Below are positions 7,714 through 30,895 of a DNA stretch of 64,000 nt, in pieces. Both the position numbers and the translations under genes were made by a program. The notes beneath the pieces are model-generated. The model made no database searches, had not been told where the DNA came from, and was given only the letters and a program-made list of their open reading frames with translations. Origin of the DNA: Escherichia coli (GTDB taxonomy: Bacteria > Pseudomonadota > Gammaproteobacteria > Enterobacterales > Enterobacteriaceae); NCBI RefSeq assembly GCF_044324875.1, contig NZ_CP172185.1, one strand, 5' to 3'. The stretch's first letter is position 1. Every line of letters starts with the position of its first letter.

Positions 7714-7761
7714 GATTCTTCACCCGTCAGAACAGGGGCGCGGTTCCGCGCCCCTGAGTGA

Positions 7762-8967: not shown

Positions 8968-8981
8968 CGTATTTCTCCTGA

Positions 8982-11033: not shown

Positions 11034-11044
11034 AATTACCTCAG

Positions 11045-13745: not shown

Positions 13746-13876
13746 CCAATCACCTCTTAAATTATTACTATAGTTCTATCTATAACTTCGCAAATAAAAA
13801 TACCGGAGAACTAATCATCAAAAAAGATAATTAGTTCAACCAGCATTAATAATATGGAATATCCAGACAATCTATT

Positions 13877-14332
13877 TCATTTTAAATCTATATATAACAT
13901 TTTCCCTGCAAGCAAGGCCAATTCTGATTTAAAACCCTTTCCGGCCAAGAAAGCCATTTGAAGTTCTCGTAAATTATCCATGGTTTTAGAAATATCATCA
14001 TTTGAGTTAGATGATAGATAAATATTGCACCTAGATTGCAATTCATTAAAGGCTCTGATAATCAACTTTCTATTAACATAACCTTCATCATTTTCTAAAT
14101 TCTTTGGCATAGAAATCAAAGTATTATTATACTCAATGATAGCATCCATCAATTTCAATTTTTTGTCTTCATTATACTGTTTTTTCCATTGCCCTAATGC
14201 GAGAAAACCCACAATCCCTGCGAACAAAGTAACTCCAATACTCGCCAGACTCACAAGAGCAGAAAATTTAGCCCAAAATGCAGCATCTCTGTTAGCTACA
14301 AGAGTTTCATAAGCAATATAAGTAGCGTCCAT
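13877..14332 (-). CDS. Hypothetical single-pass membrane protein (AT-rich cargo)
   Basis: 151-aa ORF with one hydrophobic helix, very AT-rich, in bor-equivalent moron position. Confidence 0.45.
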   Translation of the reverse strand: MDATYIAYETLVANRDAAFWAKFSALVSLASIGVTLFAGIVGFLALGQWKKQYNEDKKLKLMDAIIEYNNTLISMPKNLENDEGYVNRKLIIRAFNELQSRCNIYLSSNSNDDISKTMDNLRELQMAFLAGKGFKSELALLAGKMLYIDLK

Positions 14333-14448
14333 TTACACCTCACTTTATTTTAGAGGTGATTATAGCAAATTACATTCAATCAGGGCTGTACAGTTTTTTA
14401 TCAATTATACTTCGCCATCTCGCTATTATATAACAATATCTTTACATA

Positions 14449-15078
14449 TTGATGGCGTGCCAGCACAATACTGTCACGTACAACCATTCGGATTACTCAG
14501 AGAAAAGTATGATTCAGGATTTACTGATCGAAGCAATTAGTCACGATAGGATGCATAAAAAGTTAAATGAACTGAATTGCTACTTCTACAATCGCAAACA
14601 TGAAACACAAATACGTGATGAGTTAGTTGTTATAATCAATCAAATCAGCACACTAACTGCTTTAAGTGAGCATCCAAAACTCGGTATCGGCGCTGTTGAC
14701 ATATCACTTTATAACCAGTCGATATTGACGCCTGAACATAATGGCAATGTTGCAACCATCGAGATAAAACATCATTACCCAAAAGATTTGCTTTATCGGC
14801 AGGTTCAAGAAGATATCACTTCCGATATTTCAAGAGTAATAGTTTCACCAACTACACACTTTATCCATATAATCCAGCAAAGAACCAGAATTAAAACTCC
14901 TTCTTTTGGTCAAGTGAAATTCCTTGAACGTGATGCAAGTGATATCAGCACTTATGTGCAATATCTTGAGGAGCTAAGTTCATTTCCCAGTAATTTTCAT
15001 AAAAAAAGTGTATGTATTGAGGTAATTGGTGAAATTATGTCGACATATACCTTTAACGTATATTCATTTGACAACTGA
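14449..15078 (+). CDS. Hypothetical protein (AT-rich cargo, opposite to late genes)
   Basis: 209-aa ORF, AT-rich, divergent from 13877-14332; true start may be internal Met near 14509. Confidence 0.45.
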   Translation: MMACQHNTVTYNHSDYSEKSMIQDLLIEAISHDRMHKKLNELNCYFYNRKHETQIRDELVVIINQISTLTALSEHPKLGIGAVDISLYNQSILTPEHNGNVATIEIKHHYPKDLLYRQVQEDITSDISRVIVSPTTHFIHIIQQRTRIKTPSFGQVKFLERDASDISTYVQYLEELSSFPSNFHKKSVCIEVIGEIMSTYTFNVYSFDN

Positions 15079-15099
15079 TTAAACTGTCAATTTTATTGC

Positions 15100-15357
15100 T
15101 TAATGGTTAGTTCTCTCTGAATCTATTTTACGAATGTCAGCTTTATCTCGATTGCAGTTAGCCAGCGCAGACAACAGACTCACATTCAACTCCAGACTAG
15201 CACCATACGTCAGCGGATTAGGTATAAACGGTACAGGAGTATCAGAAGTCAGGCTGGCTGGCAGTGGTGCCACCGGAGCGCTCACGTAAACCGTCCGCGA
15301 ATTTCCGCAACCGGTCAGCAGCGGCAGCAGGCACATGACGTGAAGCACAATCATCAT
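15100..15357 (-). CDS. Rz1: Rz1-type outer-membrane lipoprotein spanin (o-spanin)
   Basis: Lipobox LLTGC and proline-rich tail in alternative frame overlapping 3' end of Rz. Confidence 0.6.
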   Translation of the reverse strand: MMIVLHVMCLLPLLTGCGNSRTVYVSAPVAPLPASLTSDTPVPFIPNPLTYGASLELNVSLLSALANCNRDKADIRKIDSERTNH

Positions 15358-15634
15358 CCGTAACAGCCACTTTGATATCTTCCTGGGTTCTCTGTGACTC
15401 CAGTGCGATCTGCTGTTTTGCATGCTGGTTAGCCTCCAGAACTGTATTGACGATTTGTAGTGATTGCAGGACGTTATTGGTAATGGCAGTTGCTGATTCA
15501 GCATTTCGTACAGCCTCATCAGCACGTTTCTTTTCGTACTGATATTTGCTGTAGTAGTGGTTGGCTGACCAGATGAAAGAACCAATGACAGTAACGAAGA
15601 AAGCAGCGATAACCAGCTTATAGCTCAACTTCAT
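15242..15634 (-). CDS. Rz: Rz-type inner-membrane spanin (i-spanin)
   Basis: 130-aa ORF with N-terminal TM helix and coiled coil, directly after endolysin. Confidence 0.7.
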   Translation of the reverse strand: MKLSYKLVIAAFFVTVIGSFIWSANHYYSKYQYEKKRADEAVRNAESATAITNNVLQSLQIVNTVLEANQHAKQQIALESQRTQEDIKVAVTDDDCASRHVPAAAADRLRKFADGLRERSGGTTASQPDF

Positions 15635-16094
15635 TTACCACCCCACCAGCCTCTTTAAACCGGGCAATCAGGTCACCGATTTTATGTTCATACTGACCGT
15701 AACCAGCACCCGGCAGTGAAGCCCAGATATTGCTGCAACGGTCGATTGCCTGACGGATATCACCGCGATCAATCATCGGTAAAGCGCCACGCTCTTTAAT
15801 CTGCTGCAGAGCTACAGCGTCCTGGCTTTCTGGAGAAAAATCTTTCAGGCCAAGCTGTTTACGGTAAGCATCCCACCAGCGTGAAAGAAGCTGGTAACGT
15901 CCGGCGGCTGTTGATTTGAGTTTGGGGTTTAGCGTGACAAGTTTGCGAGGGTGATCGGAGTAATCAGTGAACAGTTCACCACCAACAATAACATCATAAC
16001 CGTGGTTACGTGTCGGTTGTCGCCCGTTATCCGTTCCTTCTGACCATGCCACCATATCGAGGAAAGCTTTACGCTGGGAATTTAGTACCTGCAT
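15618..16094 (-). CDS. R: Endolysin, lambda R-type lytic transglycosylase
   Basis: 158-aa ORF near-identical over most of its length to recalled lambda R (NQRKAFLDM...AWSEGTDNGRQ...). Confidence 0.9.
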   Translation of the reverse strand: MQVLNSQRKAFLDMVAWSEGTDNGRQPTRNHGYDVIVGGELFTDYSDHPRKLVTLNPKLKSTAAGRYQLLSRWWDAYRKQLGLKDFSPESQDAVALQQIKERGALPMIDRGDIRQAIDRCSNIWASLPGAGYGQYEHKIGDLIARFKEAGGVVNEVEL

Positions 16095-16097
16095 AAA

Positions 16098-16424
16098 TTA
16101 CTCCTTAGAGCCACCAAACTTATTACCGATTACTCTCATTGCAGCCCCACGAATAGCATCGACACCGATCAGCCCCACCCCACCACCAATGGCAACAGAA
16201 AGCGATTTAGGCCATCCGACATACTCAAGAGCGGATGCAAAAGTCAGCGTCAGAGCGCCACAGAGTAGAATTTCGAGTGTTTTTCGCTTCCAGCCACCAC
16301 CACCGCCAAAATAGGCAATGCGCAAGCCAGCCATAACGATCGACATAATCACTGCGCCCAGTGGTGTGTCTCCACGCCACCAGCTCTGGACCAACTCCAG
16401 CCAGGTATTTGGGTTATGAGGCAT
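16098..16424 (-). CDS. S: Holin, lambda S-like class I
   Basis: 108-aa ORF with three hydrophobic segments and charged C-terminus, immediately upstream of R. Confidence 0.75.
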   Translation of the reverse strand: MPHNPNTWLELVQSWWRGDTPLGAVIMSIVMAGLRIAYFGGGGGWKRKTLEILLCGALTLTFASALEYVGWPKSLSVAIGGGVGLIGVDAIRGAAMRVIGNKFGGSKE

Positions 16425-16564
16425 TTGTAGTTATCTCTCACCTCGCCGATACAGGAGGTGCAAATTGAGGGAGTACCACGAACCGCAAACCAGAAGCGGA
16501 AACGTAAAAGAAGCCGAGCCAATGGATAAGTACTAGATAGACCAAGCCCAACGAATACCAAGGC

Positions 16565-16598
16565 CCAGAAATGACAAAACCCGCTCGACGGCGGGTTT
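16565..16598 (-). terminator. Intrinsic terminator upstream of holin (tR'-like)
   Basis: Hairpin AAACCCGC-cgtcga-GCGGGTTT followed by T-rich tract on minus strand. Confidence 0.5.
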
Positions 16599-16755
16599 AA
16601 GCTGTGTGGCAAAGTAACCACTCTTAACACGATATAATACTTTTTGCGTACGCGTTAACTTTTTCTGTAGTATTTAGTGTAAGATTCTTCACAAGATAGA
16701 TACTTTGGAGTACATGATGTAAAGTGCTGTATGCATAAACAGTACAAAGGATATC

Positions 16756-17277
16756 ATGATGAACAAATTAGCACGCTTATTATTAACAGCCAGCTCAATT
16801 GCACCTGTTTGCGCAACTCTATTTTTTATTGGATATGTAAAAGATACGGTTTGGCTGATGCAATATAGCTTATGCGTTGGCATAGCAAGTTGGTTATTAG
16901 CAATAGGCCTGATTCAATATGCTGAGAAACAACTTGAACCTCTGACAAAAAATATTAGTTCAGTTTCTCCCGCTAACAAAGAAGTAACTAATTATTTCTT
17001 AAGCTATTTATTCCCTCTCCTAGGAACAGATTCTATTGCTGAAAATAAAGCATATGCGTTATTCTTTTATTTATCATTGTTATTTTACATCAGCTTTTCC
17101 GAGAACTATAACTTTAACCCAGTATTGTCACTTATCGGTTATAAATTTTACGAAGCTGAAGATGACACCGGCGTAGGTTTTGTATTGATTTCTAAATCAG
17201 TTATTACTGATATTAAAGATATCAAATTTACAGTTATTCAATTAACAGACTACACATTTCTACATGTTAAAGGATAA
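16756..17277 (+). CDS. Multi-pass membrane protein, first gene of AT-rich cargo cassette
   Basis: 173-aa ORF with 3-4 hydrophobic helices, AAGGA ribosome-binding site, opposite strand to flanking late genes. Confidence 0.6.
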   Translation: MMNKLARLLLTASSIAPVCATLFFIGYVKDTVWLMQYSLCVGIASWLLAIGLIQYAEKQLEPLTKNISSVSPANKEVTNYFLSYLFPLLGTDSIAENKAYALFFYLSLLFYISFSENYNFNPVLSLIGYKFYEAEDDTGVGFVLISKSVITDIKDIKFTVIQLTDYTFLHVKG

Positions 17278-17282
17278 TAACC

Positions 17283-18167
17283 ATGGCACTTTTTGCAGTA
17301 ATAGATAATACAATTGCAACGAGAATTGTTAGAGTCGAACTTGATGCAACAGCAAGTACTTCTGTTACGGCCATTTTCCAACAACAGCGTCAATATTTTG
17401 AAAGTCATCATAACAATATGATACCATTCTATGCCGGTTATACACCAAAACATAGTGAGTGTTTTGAAATACAAAACTTTACTGATTCTGCACGCCTGAT
17501 TGACGCAGTCAATAGGCCTACCGCCGTGCCTATCTGGGATCCTAGCCAAATTGATATTGGTTATATTAAAGCATTATTTGTTGGTGTTGACGCGCCAGCA
17601 AACCCCAATATTATTGCACTACAAACTTTCAACAAAAAACAAATCTTAGATACCTCAAAATCATTCTTTGGAAAGCTTTTTGCAAGCAAAACTACCTTTA
17701 GTAAAGCTAATAGCATCGGTTTTAATGTTGATGATAAACTAGTTGCAATAATTATCAATGATACAATACGATTTAAGAGTTTCTTTAATCTAAGAAGCAT
17801 TTTTGACATGTCGTCCTATTTTTCTGCTGCTACTGACCAAGAACTTAATGCATTTAGTCAACTTAGTGTATTTTCTACTCCCCAAGGTTTTGATCTAAAA
17901 TCCGTTGCAGATACAGTGATAAGAAATAAAGTAACACTAATAAATCAGACTGGGATGCTAACACCCCAAAATATGTCAAAGTTTAAATCCGAAGCTGCTA
18001 AAGTTAATTTCCCCTTACAAACCATAATAGTTGGCGGTGTTGAGAAAATTGTCATGCCTTCATCAAAAAAAGAAATAAAAGCCCTTCTTGACTTTCTTGA
18101 GGAAGACATTTGGGTTTCTGGAATAAGTGGAAGACGCTTTAAATCGAATTCAAAGCGCCCAATATAA
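17283..18167 (+). CDS. Hypothetical soluble protein, second gene of cargo cassette
   Basis: 294-aa ORF starting 5 nt after the preceding stop with its own AAAGGA ribosome-binding site; AT-rich. Confidence 0.6.
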   Translation: MALFAVIDNTIATRIVRVELDATASTSVTAIFQQQRQYFESHHNNMIPFYAGYTPKHSECFEIQNFTDSARLIDAVNRPTAVPIWDPSQIDIGYIKALFVGVDAPANPNIIALQTFNKKQILDTSKSFFGKLFASKTTFSKANSIGFNVDDKLVAIIINDTIRFKSFFNLRSIFDMSSYFSAATDQELNAFSQLSVFSTPQGFDLKSVADTVIRNKVTLINQTGMLTPQNMSKFKSEAAKVNFPLQTIIVGGVEKIVMPSSKKEIKALLDFLEEDIWVSGISGRRFKSNSKRPI

Positions 18168-18188
18168 CTAGAAGACAGTTAAGAATAG

Positions 18189-18551
18189 TTAACAGGCAAG
18201 AGTGCAAACAATGCCTTCAATGAAACCAAGCGATGTTTGCAACTCTTTCCTGATAGTCCCATCCGAACACTTTCTCTTCTTAGCAATGGCTCGCAATGAA
18301 ATCCCTACCACAAAATGGGCTATAACTAACTCATACTCTTCTGGTTTGTACTTTCTTAATCTAGCTACGCACCCATCGATCATGAGCCCCTCATCATCAT
18401 CACACTGAATCCGGGACTTTTTGCCATGAGGTAAAAGCCCCTTGAAGCCAGCGGCTACCGGTTGCCAGTCCACTCCGCTATTGTCTGAAGCAGCCCAAGC
18501 TCCCCAACGATCCATCACTTCATACATATCACGCATCAACTTTCTCCACAA
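18189..18551 (-). CDS. Late-gene antiterminator Q (DLP12 QuuD-like); start probably at Met 18533
   Basis: ORF shares the WGAWAA...AAGFKGL...CSDG pattern of the small Q family as recalled. Confidence 0.75.
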   Translation of the reverse strand: MWRKLMRDMYEVMDRWGAWAASDNSGVDWQPVAAGFKGLLPHGKKSRIQCDDDEGLMIDGCVARLRKYKPEEYELVIAHFVVGISLRAIAKKRKCSDGTIRKELQTSLGFIEGIVCTLAC

Positions 18552-18553
18552 AA

Positions 18554-19549
18554 TCAGGCCAGTACGCCAATTGCCAGCGCACGATCGATAAAACGAAATA
18601 TCAGCTCCAGCTGAGAGCCATACTTCTCTTCAAATGCCACGGTATCCGCATGCAGCTCGTCGTGATGCTTTCTGCACAAAGGCAACACAAAGAGGTCATG
18701 CGCTTTTGTACCCATTCCACCCTGACCGTGGCCTATCAGATGGTGGGGATCATCAGCAGGCTTTCCACAACATGCACACGGCTGTGTCTTAACCCAGCGC
18801 GTGTACTTTTCATTAACCCAGCGGCGGCTTTTTGGGCGTAACATAAAAGACTCCGGCGACTCCGGATCCACTTTCAGCGCCAGCACCTTTTTCGCTTTAT
18901 CCAGGATGATGCTGGTGGCAGGAACCGAAGGCACAAGGTCACTTTCCCGGGTGACAGACGGCACAACAGGTTTCGGTAATCTCAGCGCCTTACGGGCTGC
19001 GCTTTCAGGTAAGGCATCCGCCAGGTCATTACGAATCAGCCACCAGCACAGTTCCGGCATTGTCACGGCATGGTTATCATCAGAATCGAGATCCCGACGG
19101 ACTACAGACAACACCCAACGGGCACAGTTATCCGTTGCCATTGATTCCAGCCGCTCCGTGAACTGATCACGTAACTGATTATCGCAGTGCCAGCACAGAC
19201 GGATTGCACCCGGCGCGTGTCGCATTGTGGTCATGTTCTCGCTGTGCCAGTCGGAATGAGGCCACTGGCAGCCTTTTTCACGAAGTAACCAGCTTTCAAG
19301 ACATTCCAACCCACCAGCACGACGAATCACTGCCTCATTACGGAACACGGCCCGAACGGCAGGATCATCCGCCAGCGGTTGTGATGCCGCCGGAACGGCA
19401 CCACTGGCGAAAGATGAATAACGTTCCGGCTCAGGCTCCAGCAGGACACGCCCCTGCATAAACAGGGGCATCAGCTCTGAACCTGGCCTGAACAATACGA
19501 TCCCCATACGCGGGGCAATTTCAGGGGTCAGTAGCGCTCTCACGGTCAC
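18554..19549 (-). CDS. DUF968-family prophage protein
   Basis: 331-aa ORF with C-terminal Cys/His cluster CACCGKP...HHLIGHGQGGMG typical of this prophage family. Confidence 0.6.
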   Translation of the reverse strand: MTVRALLTPEIAPRMGIVLFRPGSELMPLFMQGRVLLEPEPERYSSFASGAVPAASQPLADDPAVRAVFRNEAVIRRAGGLECLESWLLREKGCQWPHSDWHSENMTTMRHAPGAIRLCWHCDNQLRDQFTERLESMATDNCARWVLSVVRRDLDSDDNHAVTMPELCWWLIRNDLADALPESAARKALRLPKPVVPSVTRESDLVPSVPATSIILDKAKKVLALKVDPESPESFMLRPKSRRWVNEKYTRWVKTQPCACCGKPADDPHHLIGHGQGGMGTKAHDLFVLPLCRKHHDELHADTVAFEEKYGSQLELIFRFIDRALAIGVLA

Positions 19550-19550
19550 C

Positions 19551-20381
19551 TCAATGAACGGTATCGAGCAGCTTTAACAGCTCAGGGAACCGGGATTCGA
19601 AGAAATGCGGCTGCGTCTCGCGCGGATTTGCGGGACTGGTGATGTTCTTGCCGAACATGCAGCCTTTCGCCGTCAGCGACCAGAATTTTTTGATGTTGTT
19701 AATCGCAGTGCGGCTGTATCGTTCACGTTGTTCAACGATCCCCAGCTTCGCCATCTGGTGATATGCCTGATTAGCTGTCAGGCGGATACCATACTGCTTC
19801 AGCAGTGCACTCAGTGACAGCGTGGGGCGGCTTGAGCCATCAGGCGCGTCAGCAGGAGCATCAATGGCATAGCGCGGTGCCAGATTCGGTAAGCCAACAG
19901 CCTCCTGGAGTTTCTGACAGGCACCAAGCACTGAAGAGTTAGACAGGTTTAATTCCCGGCGCATAAAGTCCAGCAGAATCACACCAGCCTGCATCTTGTC
20001 AGCAGCCTGTCCGGATAATTTTTCCGGTGCGCTGGTTACCATGTCGAAAGTACGGATCACCTTCAGATGGAATGACGGGCTTATCCACATTGCATAGGCA
20101 TACACCAGTTCTTTGCAGACATACGTCCCCTGGTTATTTCCGCCACGAATAACGTTAACTGGCTCTATATTGACCGAGTTGCAAATCTGCAACTCGCTTA
20201 TTAAACGTTCAGTTTGCTCATTGCGGAGCCAGAATGCAGGCTTATGCTTATCCAGAGAACCGGCAGCCCTGTGCAGATCGTTCAGGCTGTAACGACCATA
20301 AGCATCACGACGAACTTCAATACCATCAATGACCATCAGATTATTCATACTTCGTTTCTCCTCTTGATCAGGCGGCTGCAC
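19551..20381 (-). CDS. KilA-N domain protein
   Basis: N-terminal VIDGIEVRRDAYGRYSLNDLHRAAG motif of the KilA-N DNA-binding domain. Confidence 0.7.
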   Translation of the reverse strand: MQPPDQEEKRSMNNLMVIDGIEVRRDAYGRYSLNDLHRAAGSLDKHKPAFWLRNEQTERLISELQICNSVNIEPVNVIRGGNNQGTYVCKELVYAYAMWISPSFHLKVIRTFDMVTSAPEKLSGQAADKMQAGVILLDFMRRELNLSNSSVLGACQKLQEAVGLPNLAPRYAIDAPADAPDGSSRPTLSLSALLKQYGIRLTANQAYHQMAKLGIVEQRERYSRTAINNIKKFWSLTAKGCMFGKNITSPANPRETQPHFFESRFPELLKLLDTVH

Positions 20382-20757
20382 CCGCCGTTTTCTCGTACTT
20401 ACTGATGGTGATCTCGACCTTCCCTTTCGGGATAACCGGTCCCCACTCCACCAGCATTCTTTTCACCTGTCTGTCGTCTTCCCACACACCCGCGTGGGTC
20501 AACGCGTCAAACAGCGCCTTGTTATAGTTGTCCAGATCGCGGATCCGGTTATCCGGAGGAAACAACACGATCTCCACTGAAGCAGGTGCCGACGTTGGTT
20601 TTGGCAGACGACGTAACTGCTCAACTATTGCTGCGCACGCCGCGCTCTGAAATTTTCGCCCCGCCGCGCTTATCAGGCTCTTACCAGCAAATGCCCCTTT
20701 GTTGGGGTGTCGCCAGTACGTGTTCACGCTGGGCGGGAAAGGCAGGATCAGCTTCAT
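20368..20757 (-). CDS. rusA: Holliday junction resolvase RusA
   Basis: 129-aa ORF with RusA-like sequence in the ninR-equivalent region. Confidence 0.85.
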   Translation of the reverse strand: MKLILPFPPSVNTYWRHPNKGAFAGKSLISAAGRKFQSAACAAIVEQLRRLPKPTSAPASVEIVLFPPDNRIRDLDNYNKALFDALTHAGVWEDDRQVKRMLVEWGPVIPKGKVEITISKYEKTAGAAA

Positions 20758-21080
20758 ACTTTCAGGCCTCTCTCATGTAACCAGTGGGTTGCACGCAGCC
20801 TGGCGTTTTCCTCACCGGCAAGCAGTGAGCGGATAATCCCGACCGCCTCGCTGTCGTCGTCCTTCACCGCGGTATGAAGAGTGATACCCCGGGCCACGCC
20901 ACGCTTTATCGTGATGACGCCTTTTTTCTCCAGTGCGCGAAGATGTTCCACCGCTGCATTCACTGAACGGTATCCCAGCATGGTTGCCACCTCCTGATTG
21001 GTTGGCGGGAAGCCACGTTCTTTCTGGTAAGAAATCAGCATATCCAGCACCTGCTGCTGGCATTGAGTTAACGTCGTCAT
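20754..21080 (-). CDS. LexA DNA-binding-domain-like protein lacking peptidase domain
   Basis: 108-aa ORF aligning by eye to the LexA N-terminal winged helix (QQQVLDML...GFPPT..E.A..LGYRS.NAA.EHL.AL.KKGVI). Confidence 0.6.
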   Translation of the reverse strand: MTTLTQCQQQVLDMLISYQKERGFPPTNQEVATMLGYRSVNAAVEHLRALEKKGVITIKRGVARGITLHTAVKDDDSEAVGIIRSLLAGEENARLRATHWLHERGLKV

Positions 21081-21729
21081 GCCGCCATCTCCCTGACCAG
21101 TTTTTCCGCCTGCTGGCGAACCTGCGCCAGAAACGCCTCACCACATGCCTCAAGTTCATCGCGCCCGATGTAGCTGATTGCCGGTCCCTTCCAGGTCTTG
21201 TCGAAAACAGCAATAGCACCAGCGAAGAAAGCGCCTGTCGGCACCTGCTTCTCGTCCTTCGGTATAAACCAGGCAGGCAGTTCAAAACCAATACGCCCGC
21301 GAATAAAAGCAATATGATCTGCATCTTCCGGCCACCACACTTCGCTGGTGGCCGCTTTGATCAGGAAAACATAGCGCCCGCCCTTATCACGCATGGCACT
21401 GGCATGTTTCATGATGTAACGCATGCCGGTGATGTATTGCCCCTCATGCTGACTGGCGCGGCTGTATGGGGATTACCAAAGGCAGCACCTTTAAGCTCCG
21501 CAAGACGTTCTGACCAGTCATGCGCCAGCGCGTTATCTTCCGCCGTGTAATACGCGGCACATTTGGCGTTATCACCGTCAGTAAACAGATCCAGAACAAA
21601 CGGGCCAAACAGTGTGTTAATTCCCCAGAAAATGTTGTCCGGCGTGCGCCACTGATCGCCCACTTCCTTCAGTTCATGGGCTGGTTTGTTCCGCAGTTCC
21701 ACCAGTGCCTGACAATATTTATTACTCAT
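21077..21729 (-). pseudogene. Phage DNA N6-adenine methyltransferase (Dam family) split by a 1-nt frameshift
   Basis: ORFs 21409-21762 and 21077-21424 together match the Dam family (WRTPD...NAKC..YYT...FGNP); frame breaks in a G4 run at 21469-21472 exactly at the NPPY motif. Confidence 0.7.
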
Positions 21730-22223
21730 TAAGCCCCCACGTAATTCCCTGACAGATACCACTCTTCACCCGATGCTGCGCGCTTGCTGCTTTTCTGTAA
21801 GCACTGCTCACGACGCGCCAGAAAATTGTTTCGTTCTGGCTGGGAGTGGCTTTCACGGAATGCCGCCATCCACACCGTTGCAGCACGACGGTATAAGCCC
21901 CTGGACTCCAGTTCTTCAGCCTGGCGGGTCAGGCACAAAATCACCCGGGGATCGTTAGTGCCGACATAGAAATTGCGCACAGGTCTAGTTTCACGAACTG
22001 GTTGTGGTTCCGGCTCCTGCGCTCTCTCAGTCAGGCGCGGGAAATGTCTGCGTGTATCTCCTTCACAACGGTGAGCCACACGCCCACTCTGACGTAACTT
22101 GCTTGCTGACTGCAGAACGCGCTGTCGTGAGTAACCTGCAAAAGCATCCGCAATGTCTCCGGAAGTACACCCCGGATGGGCTTCAATGAATTTCTGAACT
22201 TCATTCAAAAGACTCATAATCAC
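21729..22223 (-). CDS. Phage early protein, putative regulator
   Basis: 164-aa ORF whose stop overlaps the Dam start (TAATG). Confidence 0.4.
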   Translation of the reverse strand: MIMSLLNEVQKFIEAHPGCTSGDIADAFAGYSRQRVLQSASKLRQSGRVAHRCEGDTRRHFPRLTERAQEPEPQPVRETRPVRNFYVGTNDPRVILCLTRQAEELESRGLYRRAATVWMAAFRESHSQPERNNFLARREQCLQKSSKRAASGEEWYLSGNYVGA

Positions 22224-23161
22224 CCCCTGAATCCTGCCGGGATCTGGCTGTAGTCCACGTTGTCGTAACTGGCTTTGAAGTACGGGTCTTCGCGTTTTTC
22301 TGTGTGCGTGCTGACGGACGGCGATAAGCGCAGGGAAAGCTCATCCCATTTTTCCCGCAACTTCGACGGGCTGAGCACGTTACGGCACCAGAACGGATCG
22401 CGGCTGACGCGGCTGTACATCTCGCAGATTTGTTTGTGAGTACGACCATCCTGCACACACATCAGGCGAATTTCGTTTGCCCAGGCTGTCCAGTTAGGTT
22501 CTTTGGGACGAACCACCTCGCCGTCACATTCGGCGGCCTGCTCGTACAGGGCGATGATTTTTTTCCAGAGCCACTGTGCGCAGGTCAAATCATCCTGCGT
22601 TCCCCACTGGCGCTTTTTAGGGCTGAATACAACCGCATCAGGATGGCGAGTTAAAAAATCCTGTTCATCCATCTGCGTGTCCGGTTGCGAAGCGTCCGGA
22701 CGAGAAGGTTTTTTATCTGATGGATCATGTTTTGATTTTACTGACGGATCCCCGCCAGATTCTGACGGGTGAAAACCCGCTTTTTTGCCAGATTTCGACG
22801 CATCAAATTTTGACGGGTCAGATTTTGATGCGTCAGATTTTGACGGGTCAGAATCTGACAGTTGAGAAAATGCCGCTGCCTGAAGCTTCGCAACGTTAAG
22901 CTGATAAACATTCGACGCATTGCGGTTACCCTGGCGACGCGCCTTACGCGTTAACCAGCCTTCTGCTTCCAGCCGTGCGATAGCCGTTCTGACGGTACTC
23001 ATCCCCGCGCCAATCTGGCGGGCAATGGTTTCAATTGATGGCCAGCACACACCTTCGTCATTACTGAAATCAGCCAGGCGGGCCATAATTGCCACGCTGG
23101 ATAATTTCATGCCTGACGCAGCGCAACCATCCCATACATAGCCGGTTAATTTAGTGCTCAT
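22220..23161 (-). CDS. Replication initiation protein, O-like with N-terminal HTH
   Basis: 313-aa ORF with HTH near the N-terminus and an internal iteron-encoded repeat, in the O position. Confidence 0.65.
   Translation of the reverse strand: MSTKLTGYVWDGCAASGMKLSSVAIMARLADFSNDEGVCWPSIETIARQIGAGMSTVRTAIARLEAEGWLTRKARRQGNRNASNVYQLNVAKLQAAAFSQLSDSDPSKSDASKSDPSKFDASKSGKKAGFHPSESGGDPSVKSKHDPSDKKPSRPDASQPDTQMDEQDFLTRHPDAVVFSPKKRQWGTQDDLTCAQWLWKKIIALYEQAAECDGEVVRPKEPNWTAWANEIRLMCVQDGRTHKQICEMYSRVSRDPFWCRNVLSPSKLREKWDELSLRLSPSVSTHTEKREDPYFKASYDNVDYSQIPAGFRG
22762..22860. repeat. Iteron array (putative phage origin) inside the O-like gene
   Basis: About six direct repeats of a 12-15 bp unit related to GATTTTGACGGG. 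Confidence 0.5.
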
Positions 23162-23509
23162 GACCGACCTCTATTTCCCTGAATTTACGACGAAACTGTT
23201 CGAGCGGACTGAAGCATTCATGCTCATAGCCTTCGCGGAGGTAGATAACCCGTTGTGTTTCCGGCTCCCAACGAATGACTCTGACGGGCACTCCGTAGTG
23301 ATCTTTGAACCAGCGGTTAACTTGTCGCAAAGGACTGTCTCCTTCTGCCGGTTGAAATCACCCACAGCCCACTCTGCAAAGCTGTGGGTTACAATTTCCC
23401 TGTCACCTAGTACATTCACTGCATAGCAATATTCCACCTTCGCTTTTCCACCCGGTACAGGAAGCGCAATCAGTTGCGAGCGACGGTAGTGTGTTGTTAA
23501 ACTGTTCAT
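23151..23509 (-). pseudogene. Small early gene upstream of O, apparently frameshifted (or two overlapping short ORFs)
   Basis: Protein-like N-terminal half in one frame and protein-like C-terminal half (...[23 protein letters not shown]...) in the -1 frame ending at the O start; junction near 23325-23350. Confidence 0.35.
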
Positions 23510-24075
23510 GCGTTAGTTTCTCCACAACCAGAAGCAATCGACGCCACGACGCCCGGAGCTGCACACTCGCGGGCGTCATTACTTTCTGAAATGCAAAAAA
23601 TTTTGTAGACAAGTGCTGCATGCTCCTGCAGCTTCGAAATTGAGAGATACAGCTCGTCGTTAATTGCTGTCTTCTCATGCGGTTCCACTACACCGTCTTC
23701 GATTGCTGAACGAATCTGTTTTGAATAACTGCCGATCTGTTCAATGACTTCCAGCAGACGCTGGTTAATATCGGCGTTGTCCACATCCTCGACGTCAGGA
23801 AGAGACACAAAGACGCCATTTGCAGACTGCGCCACAGCATCAGCAATGAAATGAGTGCCACCAGCACGCTGTAAAACCATTGCCCATCCCAGCGGGAAAA
23901 TCTGATCGCCATCTGCACGAAGGCGGTTGAATAAAGCGTTTTCTGTTACATCGAGCCAGTCAGCCGCTTCAGCGTAACCACCCGGCAACGCCGCGATAGT
24001 TTTTCTGACAGCTTTCACGTACCACTCAGGCTGTTTTTCTATTTTCCAGTGATGCTTACCCACGATTAGCCTCAT
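23506..24075 (-). CDS. Putative CII-like early regulatory protein
   Basis: 189-aa ORF in the cII-equivalent position directly downstream of cro; position-based. Confidence 0.35.
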
Positions 24076-24397: not shown

Positions 24398-25072
24398 ATG
24401 AAAACAATCCATGACATCCGGCGGTCTAACGCCAGAAAACTGAGAGATGGTGTTGGCGGGAATTCTTCCTTTGCCACTATGATTGATCGCGAGCCAACCC
24501 AGACCAGCAGGTTTATGGGAGATGGTGCTACTAAAAATATCGGTGACAGCATGGCACGACACATCGAAAAATGTTTCGACCTGCCTGTCGGATGGCTCGA
24601 TCAAGAACACCAGACAACGAACATCACAAAAAAACCTGATGTTTCAATCACTAATAAACAAATCACATTAGTCCCTGTCATATCATGGGTACAGGCCGGA
24701 GCATGGAAAGAAGTTGGATATTCTGAGGTTGATTTGAGCACAGCAGAAACGTATCCCTGCCCTGTACCCTGTGGGGAAATGACTTATATCTTGCGGGTGA
24801 TAGGTGATTCAATGATTGATGAGTACCGCCCGGGAGACATGATTTTTGTCGATCCTGAAGTACCTGCCTGCCACGGTGACGACGTTATTGCATTGATGCA
24901 CGATACAGGTGAAACCACCTTCAAAAGGTTGATAGAAGATGGGACACAGCGTTATCTCAAAGCGTTAAACCCAAACTGGCCTGAGCCTTACATTAAGATC
25001 AACGGTAATTGCTCTATAATTGGAACTGTGATTTTCTCAGGAAAACCAAGAAGATACAAAATCAAAGCCTAA
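24398..25072 (+). CDS. CI-like repressor with HTH and LexA-like S24 peptidase domain
   Basis: 224-aa ORF; N-terminal HTH and C-terminal GDSM...K autocleavage domain. Confidence 0.85.
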   Translation: MKTIHDIRRSNARKLRDGVGGNSSFATMIDREPTQTSRFMGDGATKNIGDSMARHIEKCFDLPVGWLDQEHQTTNITKKPDVSITNKQITLVPVISWVQAGAWKEVGYSEVDLSTAETYPCPVPCGEMTYILRVIGDSMIDEYRPGDMIFVDPEVPACHGDDVIALMHDTGETTFKRLIEDGTQRYLKALNPNWPEPYIKINGNCSIIGTVIFSGKPRRYKIKA

Positions 25073-25261: not shown

Positions 25262-25306
25262 TCAGGTCCCCATCAACAAGTAACTGATAACTTGAGGAGG
25301 TGTGAA

Positions 25307-25513
25307 ATGCACAAAACAGAACCAAAAATCGTCGCGCCCGGATACACAAATGAGGAAATTTACGAGTGGATGGCAAAGAAGCTGGCAGCTATAAACCAGC
25401 TTCGTGAAGTGCTGTCTTATCGACAGGAAACAATAGACTCCTTAAAAAAACTGGATCAGGAAATCACGGTTTTATCACAGGATGTTACTTTAGATATTGT
25501 GCAGACAAATTAG
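25307..25513 (+). CDS. Hypothetical 68-aa protein, first gene after pL
   Basis: Strong GAGGAGG ribosome-binding site 6 nt before ATG; no arginine-rich motif. Confidence 0.5.
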   Translation: MHKTEPKIVAPGYTNEEIYEWMAKKLAAINQLREVLSYRQETIDSLKKLDQEITVLSQDVTLDIVQTN

Positions 25514-25919
25514 GATCCCATTCATTTTCGTCAAAATCATCAAAGTGATGAATTTGTGATCTCCAGTCTCGATAATCTAAAAATTTCTGGGCGGTTACGC
25601 TTATTTTATCAAGCGTGAGTTCATCCTGAATTGAAAGAAGAAGTTCATCAAATTTCATCTCATTAATCTGTTTTGGCATCCAGTGATGCTTCATCAGAAT
25701 AAGGTGAACCAGAGCTTTTTTCCCATTCAACTGATTATAGGGAGTGCCGAATTTCTTCCGGTGCTCATGTAAGACAAGGTCCAGAAGAGTAAGTAATGTT
25801 GCCCTTGATTCAACTTTGCTTATTTCGACTGATGACACTACCCCACTGATTTCAATGCCCCGATACTTTCCAACATTTTCACAGTGGGATTTGTACAGCG
25901 TATAGATATTACCGGACAT
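25485..25919 (-). CDS. Hypothetical 144-aa protein antisense to the pL operon
   Basis: AT-rich ORF with AAGGA ribosome-binding site; 3' end overlaps 25307-25513 convergently by 29 nt. Confidence 0.5.
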   Translation of the reverse strand: MSGNIYTLYKSHCENVGKYRGIEISGVVSSVEISKVESRATLLTLLDLVLHEHRKKFGTPYNQLNGKKALVHLILMKHHWMPKQINEMKFDELLLSIQDELTLDKISVTAQKFLDYRDWRSQIHHFDDFDENEWDPNLSAQYLK

Positions 25920-26070
25920 TTCTTTTCCTTTTGCGTTGTTGGGGATAACCAGATTAACCGAATCCTTGTTGTTGGGGAATAACCAGGTCCACCTCGCCTG
26001 ATGTGGCTAAAAGCAGGCACATAACAGCTAAGTATTTTCAACCAGAGAGAATCCTTAGCGTTGTGGTGAA

Positions 26071-26387
26071 TGCGGCTCAGCGCACGCGGGTTAAGGTTGA
26101 GGCTGACAGTCGACCTTCTGTGGATACCCACCCGCCTGGTGTGCAACCTTCGCCAGGCACCGGGAGGCACCCGGCACCACAACTTTATGCTGCGTGTAGT
26201 CTTGGCGGTACCAGCTTTTACCCTTGCTTCCGGCTGGTACCGTCCTTTTTACAAAACAGAGAAGAGCATTACCGGACGACGGGCTCATAACTCAATCCAT
26301 CCGGGCGGCTGCCACCGCAGGTGTTCTTCTCTGTTTTGTGGAGAAACTAATCGGCTTTGCAGGGTCGATATGATGAGGAGCAGCAAA
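26071..26387. other. GC-rich structured noncoding segment (candidate cis-acting RNA or ncRNA)
   Basis: Nested inverted repeats including a 12-bp stem GGCGGTACCAGC/GCTGGTACCGTC (26211-26251); short ORFs in several frames without ribosome-binding sites. Confidence 0.3.
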
Positions 26388-26750
26388 ATGGCTAGCGAAC
26401 GCAGTACTGATGTGCAAGCATTTATCGGGGAGCTGGACGGCGGCGTATTTGAAACCAAAATCGGCGCAGTTCTCAGTGAAGTCGCTTCCGGTGTGATGAA
26501 CACGAAAACCAAAGGTAAGGTCTCACTCAACCTGGAAATCGAACCATTTGATGAAAACCGTGTGAAAATCAAACACAAACTCTCATATGTTCGCCCGACT
26601 AACCGCGGGAAAATTTCCGAAGAAGACACCACCGAAACGCCGATGTATGTCAATCGCGGTGGTCGCCTGACTATTCTGCAGGAAGACCAGGGACAATTAC
26701 TGACTCTTGCCGGTGAACCTGACGGAAAACTCCGCGCAGCAGGTCATTAA
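26388..26750 (+). CDS. Hypothetical early-left protein (CPS-53 YfdP-like)
   Basis: 120-aa product from Met 26388 preceded by GAGGAG; the upstream in-frame extension from 26070 looks noncoding. Confidence 0.5.
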   Translation: MASERSTDVQAFIGELDGGVFETKIGAVLSEVASGVMNTKTKGKVSLNLEIEPFDENRVKIKHKLSYVRPTNRGKISEEDTTETPMYVNRGGRLTILQEDQGQLLTLAGEPDGKLRAAGH

Positions 26751-26815
26751 TATCGTTCTTAATTAACCGATTATTTATCTCATCACTGAATATCTTAATA
26801 TAGTGAGGACTTATT

Positions 26816-27640
26816 ATGTCTCAAAACTTAGACGCAACCGCATTTAATCAAATCCATGCCCTTATTTCTGCTCAGGGTGTTAATGAAATTATCAGTAAGA
26901 TTGGTGCCGATGCTGTGGCATTGCCTGAGAATTTCCGCATTCATGATCTGGAAAAATTTAATTTAAATCGCTTCCGTTTCCGTGGTGCGCTTTCCACTGC
27001 CAGCATCGATGACTTTACCCGTTATTCTAAAGATCTTGCAGATGAAGGCACCCGCTGCTTTATCGATGCTGATAATATGCGTGCCGTCAGTGTGCTTAAC
27101 CTGGGTACTATTGATGAACCAGGTCACGCAGATAACACCGCCACTCTCAAACTGAAAAAGACAGCACCGTTCTCTGCTCTGTTGTCTGTTAATGGCGAGC
27201 GTAACTCCCAGAAATCACTGGCAGAATGGATTGAAAACTGGGCCGACTACCTTGTGGGCTTTGATGCTAATGGTGACGCCATTCAGGCAACCAAAGCGGC
27301 GGCGGCTATCCGTAAAATCACAATTGAAGCGAACCAGACCGCTGATTTTGAAGATAATGACTTCAGCGGCAAACGCTCCCTGATGGAGTCTGTCGAAGCG
27401 AAGACCAAAGACATTATGCCAGTGGCATTTGAATTTAAATGCGTTCCGTTTGAAGGCCTGAAAGAACGTCCATTTAAATTACGCCTCAGCATTATCACTG
27501 GCGATCGTCCTGTACTGGTTCTGCGCATTATTCAGCTGGAAGCGGTGCAGGAAGAAATGGCTAACGAATTTCGTGATCTGCTTGTTGAGAAATTCAAAGA
27601 CAGCAAAGTAGAAACCTTTATTGGTACTTTCACCGCCTGA
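26816..27640 (+). CDS. DUF2303-type protein (YfdQ-like)
   Basis: 274-aa ORF recalled as matching E. coli CPS-53 YfdQ. Confidence 0.6.
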
Positions 27641-27767
27641 TTTCATTACTGCAAATGCCCCTGCGGGGGAATTTATGGAAACGTAATTAACTCAATAATC
27701 GCCGGATGGTGAGGACTTCCTTTTACCAGAATTCAGCGCGGTGCAGCGCATATACGTGGAGAACAAA

Positions 27768-28304
27768 ATGTCATTTATTAAAACTTTTTCCGGGAAGCAT
27801 TTTTATTATGACAAGATAAATCAAGACGACATCGTTATTAACGATATCGCGGTTTCCCTTTCAAATATCTGTCGCTTTGCAGGACATCTTTCACATTTCT
27901 ACAGCGTCGCCCAACATGCGGTGCTTTGCAGCCAACTGGTGCCGCAGGAATTTGCTTTTGAAGCGTTAATGCATGATGCAACAGAAGCGTATTGCCAGGA
28001 CATCCCGGCGCCACTGAAACGCCTTCTTCCTGACTATAAACGGATGGAAGAAAAAATAGACGCCGTAATCCGTGAGAAATACGGGTTACCCCCAGTTATG
28101 AGTACACCCGTGAAATATGCCGATCTCATCATGCTGGCAACTGAACGCCGCGATCTCGGGCTTGATGATGGCTCTTTCTGGCCAGTACTGGAAGGTATCC
28201 CGGCAACAGAGATGTTCAAAGTTATTCCACTGGCACCGGGCCATGCCTACGGGATGTTTATGGAACGCTTCAACGAGTTATCGGAATTACGCAAATGTGC
28301 ATAA
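27768..28304 (+). CDS. HD-domain phosphohydrolase (YfdR-like 5'-deoxynucleotidase)
   Basis: 178-aa product with H..HD metal-binding signature (HAVL...MHDATEAY). Confidence 0.65.
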   Translation: MSFIKTFSGKHFYYDKINQDDIVINDIAVSLSNICRFAGHLSHFYSVAQHAVLCSQLVPQEFAFEALMHDATEAYCQDIPAPLKRLLPDYKRMEEKIDAVIREKYGLPPVMSTPVKYADLIMLATERRDLGLDDGSFWPVLEGIPATEMFKVIPLAPGHAYGMFMERFNELSELRKCA

Positions 28305-29173
28305 CTCATGTAGTTAGTTTTTCTGGCGGGAGAACATCCGCATATCTTGTTCACCTGATGGAAGAACAAAGAAAGGCTGGCAATAACGTCTGCTACATCT
28401 TTATGGATACCGGTTGCGAACATCCGCTGACATACCGCTTTATCCGGGAGGTTGTGAAGTTCTGGGACATACCACTAACTGTGTTACAGGTCGATATAAA
28501 TCCTGAGCTTGGGCAGCCAAATGGTTATACAGAATGGGAGCCAACGGATATTCAGACACGAATGCCGGTGCTTAAACCGTTTATGGACATGGTTAAAAAG
28601 TACGGCACGCCATACATCGGCGGCGCGTTCTGTACTGACAGGCTAAAACTCATCCCTTTCACGAAATACTGCGATAACCATTTCGGGCGAGGTAATTACA
28701 TCACATGGCTGGGTATTCGTGCAGACGAACCCCGTAGGCTGAAACCGAAATCGGGCGTCCGGTATCTTGCCGAGCTGTCAGATTTTGATAAGTCGGATGT
28801 TATCCGGTGGTGGCGAAAACAACCTTTTGATTTGCAAATCCCGGAGCATCTCGGGAACTGTGTTTTCTGCATCAAAAAGTCAACGCAAAAGCTGGGGCTT
28901 GCATGTAAAGACGAACCAGGTCTGATGCGAGTTTTTAATGAGCTGGTTACAGGCAAACACGTCAGGGATGGTCATCGCAGAACAGGTAAAGACATTATGT
29001 ACCGTGGTCACCTGACGCTTGACGGAATTGCCAGAATGTCTGCCAACAGCGACTACAGAAATTTGTATCAGGCGATGGTACAGGCCAGGCGATTCGATAC
29101 CGGCTCGTGTTCAGAGTCATGTGAAATCTGGGGTGATCAATTGGAATTGGAATTCGAAGAGGTAGGGGTATGA
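28295..29173 (+). CDS. PAPS reductase-like PP-loop protein
   Basis: 292-aa ORF with N-terminal SFSGGRTS PP-loop ATP-pyrophosphatase motif. Confidence 0.7.
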   Translation: MCITHVVSFSGGRTSAYLVHLMEEQRKAGNNVCYIFMDTGCEHPLTYRFIREVVKFWDIPLTVLQVDINPELGQPNGYTEWEPTDIQTRMPVLKPFMDMVKKYGTPYIGGAFCTDRLKLIPFTKYCDNHFGRGNYITWLGIRADEPRRLKPKSGVRYLAELSDFDKSDVIRWWRKQPFDLQIPEHLGNCVFCIKKSTQKLGLACKDEPGLMRVFNELVTGKHVRDGHRRTGKDIMYRGHLTLDGIARMSANSDYRNLYQAMVQARRFDTGSCSESCEIWGDQLELEFEEVGV

Positions 29174-29514
29174 CAACCGAAATTAACTACCATGCACTGC
29201 TTGAGCGCGCACGGAATAAAGTGCAGAGCATTGAGTTCGCCTTAACACAGAGTGCATTCGCTGAGATTCGCGCTGAGCTTGAAAATGATTTAGAACTGGC
29301 ACGGATTGCACTGGCATCTCTGGAAGTTGAGCCAGATGAACGCGCAGCCTATGAATTATTTATGGAAAAGCGTTTCGGTAAAACAGTCGATCGTCGGAGA
29401 GCAAAAAACGGCGATAACGAATACATGGCATGGGATATGACTCTCGGTTGGATCATCTGGCAGCAACGAGCTGGTATCCATTTTTCAACAATGTCACAAC
29501 AAGAGGTGAAATAA
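29170..29514 (+). CDS. Hypothetical protein
   Basis: 114-aa ORF overlapping previous stop by 4 nt. Confidence 0.45.
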   Translation: MTTEINYHALLERARNKVQSIEFALTQSAFAEIRAELENDLELARIALASLEVEPDERAAYELFMEKRFGKTVDRRRAKNGDNEYMAWDMTLGWIIWQQRAGIHFSTMSQQEVK

Positions 29515-29628: not shown

Positions 29629-29847
29629 ATGTACTTGACACTTCAGGAGTGGAACGCTCGCCAGCGACGCCCAAGAAGCCTTGAAACAGTTCGTCGATGG
29701 GTGCGCGAATGCAGGATATTCCCTCCTCCGGTTAAGGATGGAAGAGAGTATCTGTTCCACGAATCAGCGGTAAAGGTTGACTTAAATCGACCAGTAACAG
29801 GTAGCCTTTTGAAGAGGATCAGAAATGGGAAGAAGGCGAAGTCATGA
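29629..29847 (+). CDS. xis: Excisionase Xis (lambda)
   Basis: 72-aa product MYLTLQEWNARQRRPRSLETVRRW... matches lambda Xis as recalled. Confidence 0.9.
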   Translation: MYLTLQEWNARQRRPRSLETVRRWVRECRIFPPPVKDGREYLFHESAVKVDLNRPVTGSLLKRIRNGKKAKS

Positions 29848-30895
29848 GCGCCGGGATTTACCCCCTAACCTTTATATAAGAAACAATGGATATTACTGCT
29901 ACAGGGACCCAAGGACGGGTAAAGAGTTCGGATTAGGCAGAGACAGGAGGATAGCAATTACTGAAGCAATACAGGCAAACATTGAGTTATTTTCAGGACA
30001 CAAACACAAGCCTCTGACAGCGAGAATCAACAGTGATAATTCTGTTACGTTACATTCATGGCTTGATCGCTACGAAAAAATCCTCGCCAGCAGAGGAATC
30101 AAGCAGAAGACACTTATAAATTACATGAGCAAAATTAAAGCAATAAGGAGGGGGCTACCTGATGTTCCACTTGAAGACATCACCACAAAAGAAATTGCAG
30201 CAATGCTCAATGGATACATAGACGAGGGCAAGGCGGCGTCAGCCAAGTTAATCAGATCAACACTGAGCGATGCATTCCGAGAGGCAATAGCTGAAGGCCA
30301 TATAACAACAAACCCGGTCGCTGCCACTCGCGCAGCAAAATCAGAGGTAAGGAGATCAAGACTTACGGCTGACGAATACCTGAAAATTTATCAAGCAGCA
30401 GAATCATCACCATGTTGGCTTAGACTTGCAATGGAACTGGCTGTTGTTACCGGGCAGCGAGTTGGTGATTTATGCGAAATGAAGTGGTCTGATATCGTAG
30501 ATGGATATCTTTATGTCGAGCAAAGCAAAACAGGCGTAAAAATTGCCATCCCAACAGCATTGCATGTTGATGCTCTCGGAATATCAATGAAGGAAACACT
30601 TGATAAATGCAAAGAGATTCTTGGCGGAGAAACCATAATTGCATCTACTCGTCGCGAACCGCTTTCATCCGGCACAGTATCAAGGTATTTTATGCGCGCA
30701 CGAAAAGCATCAGGTCTTTCCTTCGAAGGGGATCCGCCTACCTTTCACGAGTTGCGCAGTTTGTCTGCAAGACTCTATGAGAAGCAGATAAGCGATAAGT
30801 TTGCTCAACATCTTCTCGGGCATAAGTCGGACACCATGGCATCACAGTATCGTGATGACAGAGGCAGGGAGTGGGACAAAATTGAAATCAAATAA
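29825..30895 (+). CDS. int: Integrase Int (lambda, tyrosine recombinase)
   Basis: 356-aa product MGRRRSHERRDLPPNLYIRNNGYYCYRDPRTGKEF... matches lambda Int as recalled. Confidence 0.95.
   Translation: MGRRRSHERRDLPPNLYIRNNGYYCYRDPRTGKEFGLGRDRRIAITEAIQANIELFSGHKHKPLTARINSDNSVTLHSWLDRYEKILASRGIKQKTLINYMSKIKAIRRGLPDVPLEDITTKEIAAMLNGYIDEGKAASAKLIRSTLSDAFREAIAEGHITTNPVAATRAAKSEVRRSRLTADEYLKIYQAAESSPCWLRLAMELAVVTGQRVGDLCEMKWSDIVDGYLYVEQSKTGVKIAIPTALHVDALGISMKETLDKCKEILGGETIIASTRREPLSSGTVSRYFMRARKASGLSFEGDPPTFHELRSLSARLYEKQISDKFAQHLLGHKSDTMASQYRDDRGREWDKIEIK

Follow-up and report, generated by a model that had tools for sequence, protein, structure and literature searches.

The early-left operon of a Rec-less, Chi-rich lambdoid prophage of Escherichia coli carries yfdP-yfdQ-yfdR and a ninC homologue

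This study concerns five consecutive plus-strand genes, at positions 26,388 to 29,514 of a 64,000-nucleotide stretch of Escherichia coli DNA (RefSeq assembly GCF_044324875.1, contig NZ_CP172185.1; the whole stretch is called the window here), which lie between the immunity region and the excisionase gene of a prophage. We consider it fairly probable that they form the accessory part of the pL (early-left) operon of a lambdoid prophage of the SfV/ST64B/LLS type, which carries no recombination (Rec) module. In this account the genes are yfdP-yfdQ-yfdR, a swapped-in ninC and a YfdT-like gene; the yfd genes would interfere with host replication initiation, and NinC would act independently of them. 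The account draws on the identities of the genes, the exchange of one cassette, the distribution of the genes in other genomes and the number and strand bias of the Chi sites, all of which can be read directly from the sequences. The finding is already known in kind: the genes are annotated, the situation is published, and an early-left operon of this sort is normal for a prophage type widespread in E. coli. What is added is one further member of a described class of Rec-less, Chi-rich lambdoid prophages.

An original prediction, made from the DNA letters alone, had stated that no exo/bet/gam-like genes occur between the immunity region and xis. Pfam and PHROG scans of the open reading frames (ORFs) agree, as no match to RecT, Erf, Red-beta, YqaJ/Exo, Gam, Abc2 or single-stranded DNA-binding protein (SSB) was found in any ORF from cI to xis or in the early-right region. 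A RusA resolvase is the sole recombination-related gene found in the visible part of the prophage, i.e. positions 1 to ~30,950 of the window, corresponding to its right-hand two thirds. The lack of Rec genes is explained by a published class of Rec-less, Chi-rich phages, and the Chi count obtained here supports this explanation. Zheng, Casjens, Davidson, Amundsen and Smith (Genome Res 2025, PMC12315714) reported that 68 of 314 enterobacterial lambdoid phages are without a Rec module and that 62 of these 68 carry 8 or more actively oriented Chi sites along with no more than 6 of the opposite orientation, thresholds which serve as the class criterion. The type phage of the class, LLS, grows better with RecBCD, and the yfdR/yfdQ/yfdP cluster, present in the left operons of LLS and ST64B, is common in the class (PMC12315714).

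Twelve Chi sites were counted in the 30.95-kb prophage part (one per 2.6 kb) as against four in the 33-kb host flank (one per 8.3 kb). Markov simulation gave an expectation of 2.0 ± 1.5 (order 2) or 4.3 ± 2.2 (order 3) sites with a maximum of 10, and 12 sites were reached in none of 200 runs. Ten of the twelve are on the minus strand, which becomes the top strand once the prophage is drawn like the standard lambda map, with the terminase, itself encoded on the minus strand, at the left end; by the orientation rule of PMC12315714, ten sites would be in the active orientation and two in the other. Seven of the ten lie within 13.3-24 kb, beside the terminase-proximal right end, and no Chi site falls within the left operon. 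The visible part of the prophage thus combines a lambdoid gene order devoid of Rec genes with a Chi distribution of 10 versus 2, the two sequence features by which the class is recognised. The phage probably depends on the RecBCD of its host: stimulated by many Chi sites of the correct orientation, RecBCD would supply recombination, and RusA would resolve the junctions.

The five genes are real rather than chance ORFs, with homologues numbering in the hundreds to thousands. The coordinates and plus strand predicted for them, and the four family assignments proposed, all hold against Pfam and PHROG (Table 1). The HD-domain protein YfdR matches phrog_318, 'dNMP phosphatase' (deoxynucleoside monophosphate phosphatase; E=4.5e-111), and PDB entry 2gz4 (E=1.7e-13), and the H...HD...D residues are visible in its sequence (...VAQHAV...LMHDATEAYCQD...). 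Since its score against the Pfam YfbR-like family (24.1 bits) falls slightly below the cut-off of 25.9, it is predicted to be a YfdR-type HD-domain 5'-deoxynucleotidase and not a YfbR equivalog. The protein encoded by the last gene, of 114 amino acids, is 84% identical over its C-terminal 81 residues to residues 21-101 of K-12 YfdT.

On comparison with K-12, nucleotide homology was found to stop at 28302, the end of yfdR, and to restart at 29305 within yfdT. Because of these two breakpoints, ninC with a new 5' end of the following gene appears to have taken the place of yfdS and the first part of yfdT in an exchange that follows the gene boundaries. The exchange point is the overlapping stop/start junction that in K-12 links yfdR to yfdS; here the start of ninC overlaps the stop of yfdR by 10 nucleotides, and the stop of ninC overlaps the start of the 114-residue gene. 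The resulting yfdR-ninC-yfdT' junction occurs in 281 of 5,426 complete E. coli genomes and the same arrangement in dozens of IMG/VR contigs, and the genes have already been named by NCBI's pipeline.

The sole experimental data on the yfd genes come from K-12, where yfdQ and yfdR together with yfdS or yfdT, in multicopy, suppress over-initiation mutants (Noguchi and Katayama 2016, PMC4776307). The same multicopy set blocks DnaA-dependent initiation at oriC in vivo and in extracts (PMC4776307). K-12 YfdR, a weak dNMP phosphatase, binds DnaA in a manner that depends on Phe46 of DnaA domain I, and moderately blocks the DiaA-DnaA and DnaB-DnaA contacts (PMC4776307). As near-identical yfdQ and yfdR genes and the YfdT-type C-terminus are kept here, the most likely role of the yfdQ/yfdR/yfdT-like set is modulation of host replication initiation. 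Once the operon is derepressed, the set would interfere with DnaA-dependent initiation at oriC, YfdR binding domain I of DnaA in competition with DiaA and DnaB, and would thereby join the other host-takeover functions known from pL operons. Our confidence in this role, and in the function in lytic growth that we infer from it, is moderate, because its basis is overexpression data.

Several points weigh against the account as a whole. The effect on DnaA was seen solely with multicopy expression in K-12, and deletion of yfdQRST in K-12 gave no replication phenotype (PMC4776307). The YfdT-like protein, given its different N-terminal third, may not substitute for YfdS or YfdT. For YfdQ, a homologue was detected in the PDB sequence file (E=6.1e-44), entry 9o7m, 'YfdQ Protein', of 36 chains (example chain 'C'), the sequence of which is 98.8% identical to a protein of Xanthomonas phage MET23-P3; in addition, a DUF2303 protein of Burkholderia phage JC1 has been detected in virions. 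This 36-chain entry and the virion association point to a role of YfdQ outside our explanation. With regard to Chi, cryptic prophages can gain sites passively (PMC12315714), and as the order-3 model already gives about four sites, the enrichment is roughly 3-fold, not 12-fold. The RecBCD dependence that has been shown is that of phage LLS, the window covers one part of the present prophage, and a frameshifted Dam gene in the right operon of this prophage (described below) hints that it is perhaps decaying.

The PP-loop protein is assigned by sequence to the lambda NinC family, being 79% identical to lambda NinC (Orf290) over 285 of its 292 residues. An alignment of 41 NinC homologues, down to 51% identity, showed an invariant SxSGGRxS PP-loop motif as well as DTGxEH and RxDE motifs. 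Six cysteines are conserved (C113, C126, C189, C192 and C276 invariantly, C272 in at least 90%), four of them spaced as C189-x2-C192 and C272-x3-C276. Lambda ninC is non-essential and NinC is listed as poorly understood; literature searches on NinC, and on PAPS (3'-phosphoadenosine 5'-phosphosulfate) reductase together with anti-defence, returned no functional study. NinC would be an independent and dispensable PP-loop ATP pyrophosphatase, probably with an iron-sulfur (Fe-S) or other metal site, and it would most likely adenylate a nucleic-acid or nucleotide substrate.

A more specific proposal is that NinC, alone or with a phage Dam-family methyltransferase, modifies DNA with a thio-, amino- or phosphorothioate-type group, which would shield phage DNA from restriction or defence systems. 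We regard this as doubtful, and a DNA-modification role for NinC of whatever kind as rather unlikely, even though several observations speak for it. In Vibrio phages (P0228, P0240) NinC is fused to a PF05869 Dam domain, and in Salmonella phage Oslo and two IMG/VR loci (L062 and L065) Dam is directly upstream of ninC with overlapping stop and start. In a defence library the best match of NinC was to SspD (E=1.2e-14), those to BrxP and DndC being weaker and marginal; BrxP has lately been shown to make phosphorothioate DNA. The six conserved cysteines, fold neighbours which include [4Fe-4S] thiolases and an adenosine 5'-phosphosulfate (APS) reductase, and the location of ninC inside replication or recombination modules also agree with such a role.

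Against this, known phosphorothioation requires a P-loop nucleoside triphosphatase (NTPase) partner (DndD, SspC or BrxC), both the PAPS-reductase-domain protein and the NTPase being needed for phosphorothioate synthesis (PMC12914056). Scans with Pfam and PADLOC found no NTPase or other Dnd, Ssp or Brx component in the operon, which therefore does not belong to the Dnd, Ssp or BREX-4 systems. Lambda has ninC and no Dam. To our knowledge, no phage-specific modification of lambda DNA has been reported, and this also counts against the proposal. PF05869 Dam genes are common in nin regions, being within 7 kb of ninC in 26 of 80 loci, so that adjacency could be due to chance, and the Dam gene of this very prophage is frameshifted. 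In its broadest form the idea would make NinC-type proteins, including lambda NinC, an orphan for 40 years, PP-loop enzymes that act on DNA, contain an Fe-S or metal site and work with or after phage Dam-family adenine methyltransferases in installing or processing an undescribed DNA modification, the copy found here being a portable anti-restriction or anti-defence cassette that moves between nin regions and pL operons; this we hold to be quite unlikely. Owing to the Dam fusions and the resemblance to SspD, a nucleic-acid-directed role for NinC alone stays plausible as a lead.

Two further observations concern these methyltransferases. In a Vibrio phage (MW824392.1, locus L005), a single 479-residue protein at 6001-7440 consists of a full NinC domain with a C-terminal Dam-family methyltransferase, and Erf, YqaJ, RNase T, YfdP and DUF2303 are encoded in a single divergent operon. 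In the present prophage, the Dam-family (PF05869) gene of the right operon (21077-21762, minus strand) is broken into two ORFs by a 1-nucleotide deletion, CCCCC to CCCC, in the catalytic NPPY codons when compared with the intact gene of a related genome; the split could be a pseudogene, a slippage-prone tract or a sequencing error.

It might also be proposed that in this phage exo/bet/gam are replaced by YfdP and YfdQ, as a so far unrecognised system for recombination or the handling of DNA ends, and indeed the pair occupies the position of a Rec module. The pair is conserved in phages of Escherichia, Salmonella, Vibrio and Xylella/Xanthomonas and on one metagenomic contig, frequently beside recombination or SSB genes (RecT/exo, Erf/YqaJ/RNase T, a recombinase/exonuclease/SSB set or SSB). 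K-12 yfdQ deletion mutants are mildly sensitive to methyl methanesulfonate and hydrogen peroxide (PMC4776307), and the 36 chains of 9o7m, with the example chain 'C', are, speculatively, compatible with a filament on DNA. A system that coexists with complete Rec modules is, however, no substitute for one, as also argued by PMC12315714, in which the cluster is held unlikely to be hidden recombination genes since in ArgO145 and others it is found together with a full Rec module. The same coexistence undoes the idea that the accessory genes are there 'instead' of Rec genes, because the yfdPQ pair is also found downstream of complete RecT/exo or Erf/YqaJ modules elsewhere. No Pfam recombination family or PADLOC match was obtained for YfdP or YfdQ. 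Because of the coexistence, we discarded hidden recombinases as the main reading of YfdP and YfdQ and consider the proposal improbable.

The YfdP profile had a best E of 0.27 against PDB sequences, and PADLOC returned no match for YfdP, YfdQ, YfdR, the 114-residue protein, the ECs1072-family gene or the 73-residue ORF of the left operon. An AlphaFold2 model of YfdQ (predicted local distance difference test score of 92) had no fold match in two PDB structure libraries, neither of which returned 9o7m, and a literature search on that entry gave nothing relevant. According to a preprint, production of YfdQ causes a phage resident in the same cell to form plaques.

A functional combination of HD hydrolase and PP-loop protein, acting jointly in one nucleotide- or DNA-modification pathway, had been suggested in the original prediction. 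The two genes are indeed adjacent here, with a 10-nucleotide overlap, and the adjacency recurs in the 281 E. coli genomes and, among the 80 closest IMG/VR loci, in about 44. The suggestion was not supported by a census of ninC contexts in 80 related loci and annotated phages, which took in related loci at 70% identity or more only and is thus biased toward Enterobacteria. Besides the position after yfdR seen here, ninC follows RecT-exo-yfdP'-yfdQ' and an unrelated, non-HD gene of 147 residues in Shiga toxin (Stx) phages, and RecT/exo in other enterobacterial prophages. In lambda-type nin regions it has NinB on one side and NinD or NinE on the other, with two divergent NinC lineages and no HD gene; it lies between helicase/endonuclease and primase in one Klebsiella phage and also occurs in lytic Chi-like Salmonella phages. 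Conversely, YfdR occurs without NinC in CPS-53, SfV, SfIV and ST64B. Each protein is thus widespread without the other, and an identical overlap junction ties yfdR to yfdS in K-12. Because the K-12 homology is lost precisely where yfdR ends, as a module swap would give, and resumes inside yfdT, the adjacency is best read as a mosaic accident. On distribution and breakpoint we rejected a conserved HD-NinC pair, and we regard joint action as decidedly improbable.

Lastly, NinC as a true PAPS/APS reductase, i.e. an auxiliary metabolic gene boosting sulfur assimilation as many phage annotations have it, is very improbable: the CysH-like similarity is confined to about the first 100 residues (PDB CysH matches cover residues ~3-100), the score against the NCBIfam CysH equivalog NF002537 is 20.1 bits versus a cut-off of 154, the C-terminus (...GSCSESCEIWG...) is without the ECGLH catalytic motif, the neighbours of ninC are replication or recombination modules and not sulfur-metabolism genes, and we rejected an assimilatory CysH on both the score and the motif.

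We return to the genes as the accessory part of a pL operon. The host genes ybhC and ybhJ, followed by mod and gal, lie beyond the prophage in the window, and from this flank it follows that the prophage occupies the lambda attachment site, beside ybhC. The minus strand carries the terminase, lysis, Q, replication and cro-like genes, and the plus strand those from the cI-like repressor through int, so that the visible gene order (terminase, lysis, Q, replication, cro/cI, left operon, xis, int) is lambdoid. Such an arrangement agrees with a plus-strand pL operon in the style of lambda, with a putative promoter that is a consensus match and to which we assign a function by its position.

Table 1. 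Features of the prophage part of the window, with the genes of the accessory region and the Chi sites given first
Feature	Position	Strand	Evidence
yfdP, 120 aa	26388..26750	+	phrog_204; PF27127 (YfdP) on 99%-identical homologue; 99.2% identical to K-12 YfdP
yfdQ, DUF2303, 274 aa	26816..27640	+	PF10065 E=3.9e-92, profile positions 3-269 of 269; 98.9% identical to K-12 YfdQ
yfdR, HD-domain protein	27768..28304 (ORF open from GTG at 27741)	+	98.3% identical to K-12 YfdR
ninC homologue, predicted PP-loop ATP pyrophosphatase, 292 aa	28295..29173	+	PAPS_reduct E=1.6e-08 over N-terminal ~70 aa; phrog_424 E=9.5e-91
YfdT-like chimera, 114 aa	29170..29514	+	phrog_660; novel N-terminal third, YfdT-type C-terminal 81 aa
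Ten Chi sites (5'-GCTGGTGG-3')	4601, 10542, 10898, 15643, 15873, 16377, 19040, 19311, 20448, 23858 (span 4601..23865)	-	octamer count
Two Chi sites	18911, 21344	+	octamer count
RusA Holliday-junction resolvase	20368..20757	-	Pfam RusA E=1.3e-14
cI-like repressor, LexA/S24 family	24398..25072	+	Peptidase_S24 E=1.5e-26; called ymfK in 98.8%-identical genome
Terminator-like hairpin after cI	25084-25103	+	consensus scan and sequence
pL-like promoter (putative), TTGACA-16-CATAAT	25112-25139	+	11 of 12 hexamer positions match in consensus scan
73-aa ORF, first of left operon	25292..25513	+	phrog_1744 E=6.2e-34
ECs1072-family phage-associated gene, moron-like insert	25485..25919	-	NCBIfam NF033230 E=1.7e-46 (above cut-off); phrog_5286
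STnc100-like small RNA (putative), DicF-like terminator hairpin at 3' end	26042..26253	+	Rfam RF02076
Lambda-type excisionase (xis)	29629..29847	+	Pfam Exc E=1.2e-40; annotated excisionase in related genome
Lambda-type integrase, prophage end	29825..30895	+	Phage_integrase and lambda arm-binding domain; host ybhC from 31030

Upstream of yfdP, the left operon holds two further elements, which the original prediction had overlooked along with the cI terminator, the pL-like promoter and the 73-residue ORF. The ECs1072-family gene runs antisense within the operon and overlaps the 3' end of the 73-residue ORF by 29 nucleotides; SfIV has one too. Between it and yfdP lies the putative STnc100-like small RNA, which matches the RF02076 model over its full length with 42.8 bits, below the gathering score of 47 (E=5e-08), and the DicF model matches 26191-26245 at 23 bits against a gathering score of 48. 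This small RNA would account for the junk-like ORFs of the region and for the 'frameshifted hypothetical protein' annotated at the corresponding place in a related genome. Its hairpin would terminate transcription inside the pL transcript, upstream of yfdP.

Elsewhere in the prophage, a complete Kiwa anti-phage pair was observed on the plus strand, KwaA at 16756-17277 (E=1.9e-83) and KwaB at 17283-18167 (E=2.3e-150). The pair, encoded on the other strand than its neighbours, occupies an island of ~34% G+C flanked by the Q antiterminator and the lysis genes, and the 98.8%-related prophage of strain 300033 carries other genes at this spot. A second island of low G+C (~35%) is at 14001-15000, near the HNH/terminase end, where a 209-residue plus-strand ORF (14449-15078) had no Pfam and no PADLOC match; this ORF may be another moron.

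As far as meaning is concerned, the enzyme pair that had been flagged as odd turns out to be a mosaic accident, as far as the breakpoints indicate. Nevertheless few early phage genes of unassigned function are as common as yfdP/yfdQ and ninC, DUF2303 comprising ~1,440 cluster representatives at 50% identity and NinC being present in 584 of 50,697 phage records. Leads toward function are provided by the NinC-Dam fusions, the six NinC cysteines and the unpublished 36-chain YfdQ structure.

Among the closest known counterparts is the yfdP-yfdQ-yfdR-yfdS-yfdT set of CPS-53 (KpLE1) in K-12, whose YfdP, YfdQ and YfdR are 98-99% identical to those found here, with order and spacing alike. There the set continues with yfdS (DUF551) and the 5' part of yfdT, and here with ninC and the new 5' end. 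CPS-53 is a short remnant, whereas the prophage of the window still has head, terminase, lysis and int/xis genes. The early-left operons of SfV, SfIV and ST64B share the layout seen here, namely cI, a reverse ECs1072-like gene, yfdP, yfdQ, yfdR, small genes, xis and int, and SfIV matches 71% of a 5-kb query at 97% identity. These phages have yfdS/yfdT-like or Ea22-like genes in the place of ninC, and their integrases and attachment sites differ. With the LLS group the prophage has in common the lambdoid layout, the absence of SSB, nuclease, annealing-protein and anti-RecBCD genes, the presence of yfdP/yfdQ/yfdR in the left operon and the clustering of Chi sites (ten probably active, two other) toward the right end. 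Its YfdQ shares no more than 56-57% identity with those of LLS and ST64B, and unlike the LLS group the prophage has, in the genome part that is visible, a lambda-type integrase and attachment site and the extra ninC.

As regards NinC, the protein of lambda is of equal length and has all invariant motifs in common with the one described here, although lambda ninC is placed in the pR operon between ninB and ninD and the present gene follows yfdR in the pL operon. With the DndC/SspD/BrxP proteins NinC shares a PP-loop domain at the N-terminus, which resembles SspD, and the presence of conserved cysteines; in contrast to those systems, no gene for a partner NTPase, a nickase or a desulfurase accompanies ninC here, and NinC is without the DUF4007 domain of BrxP.

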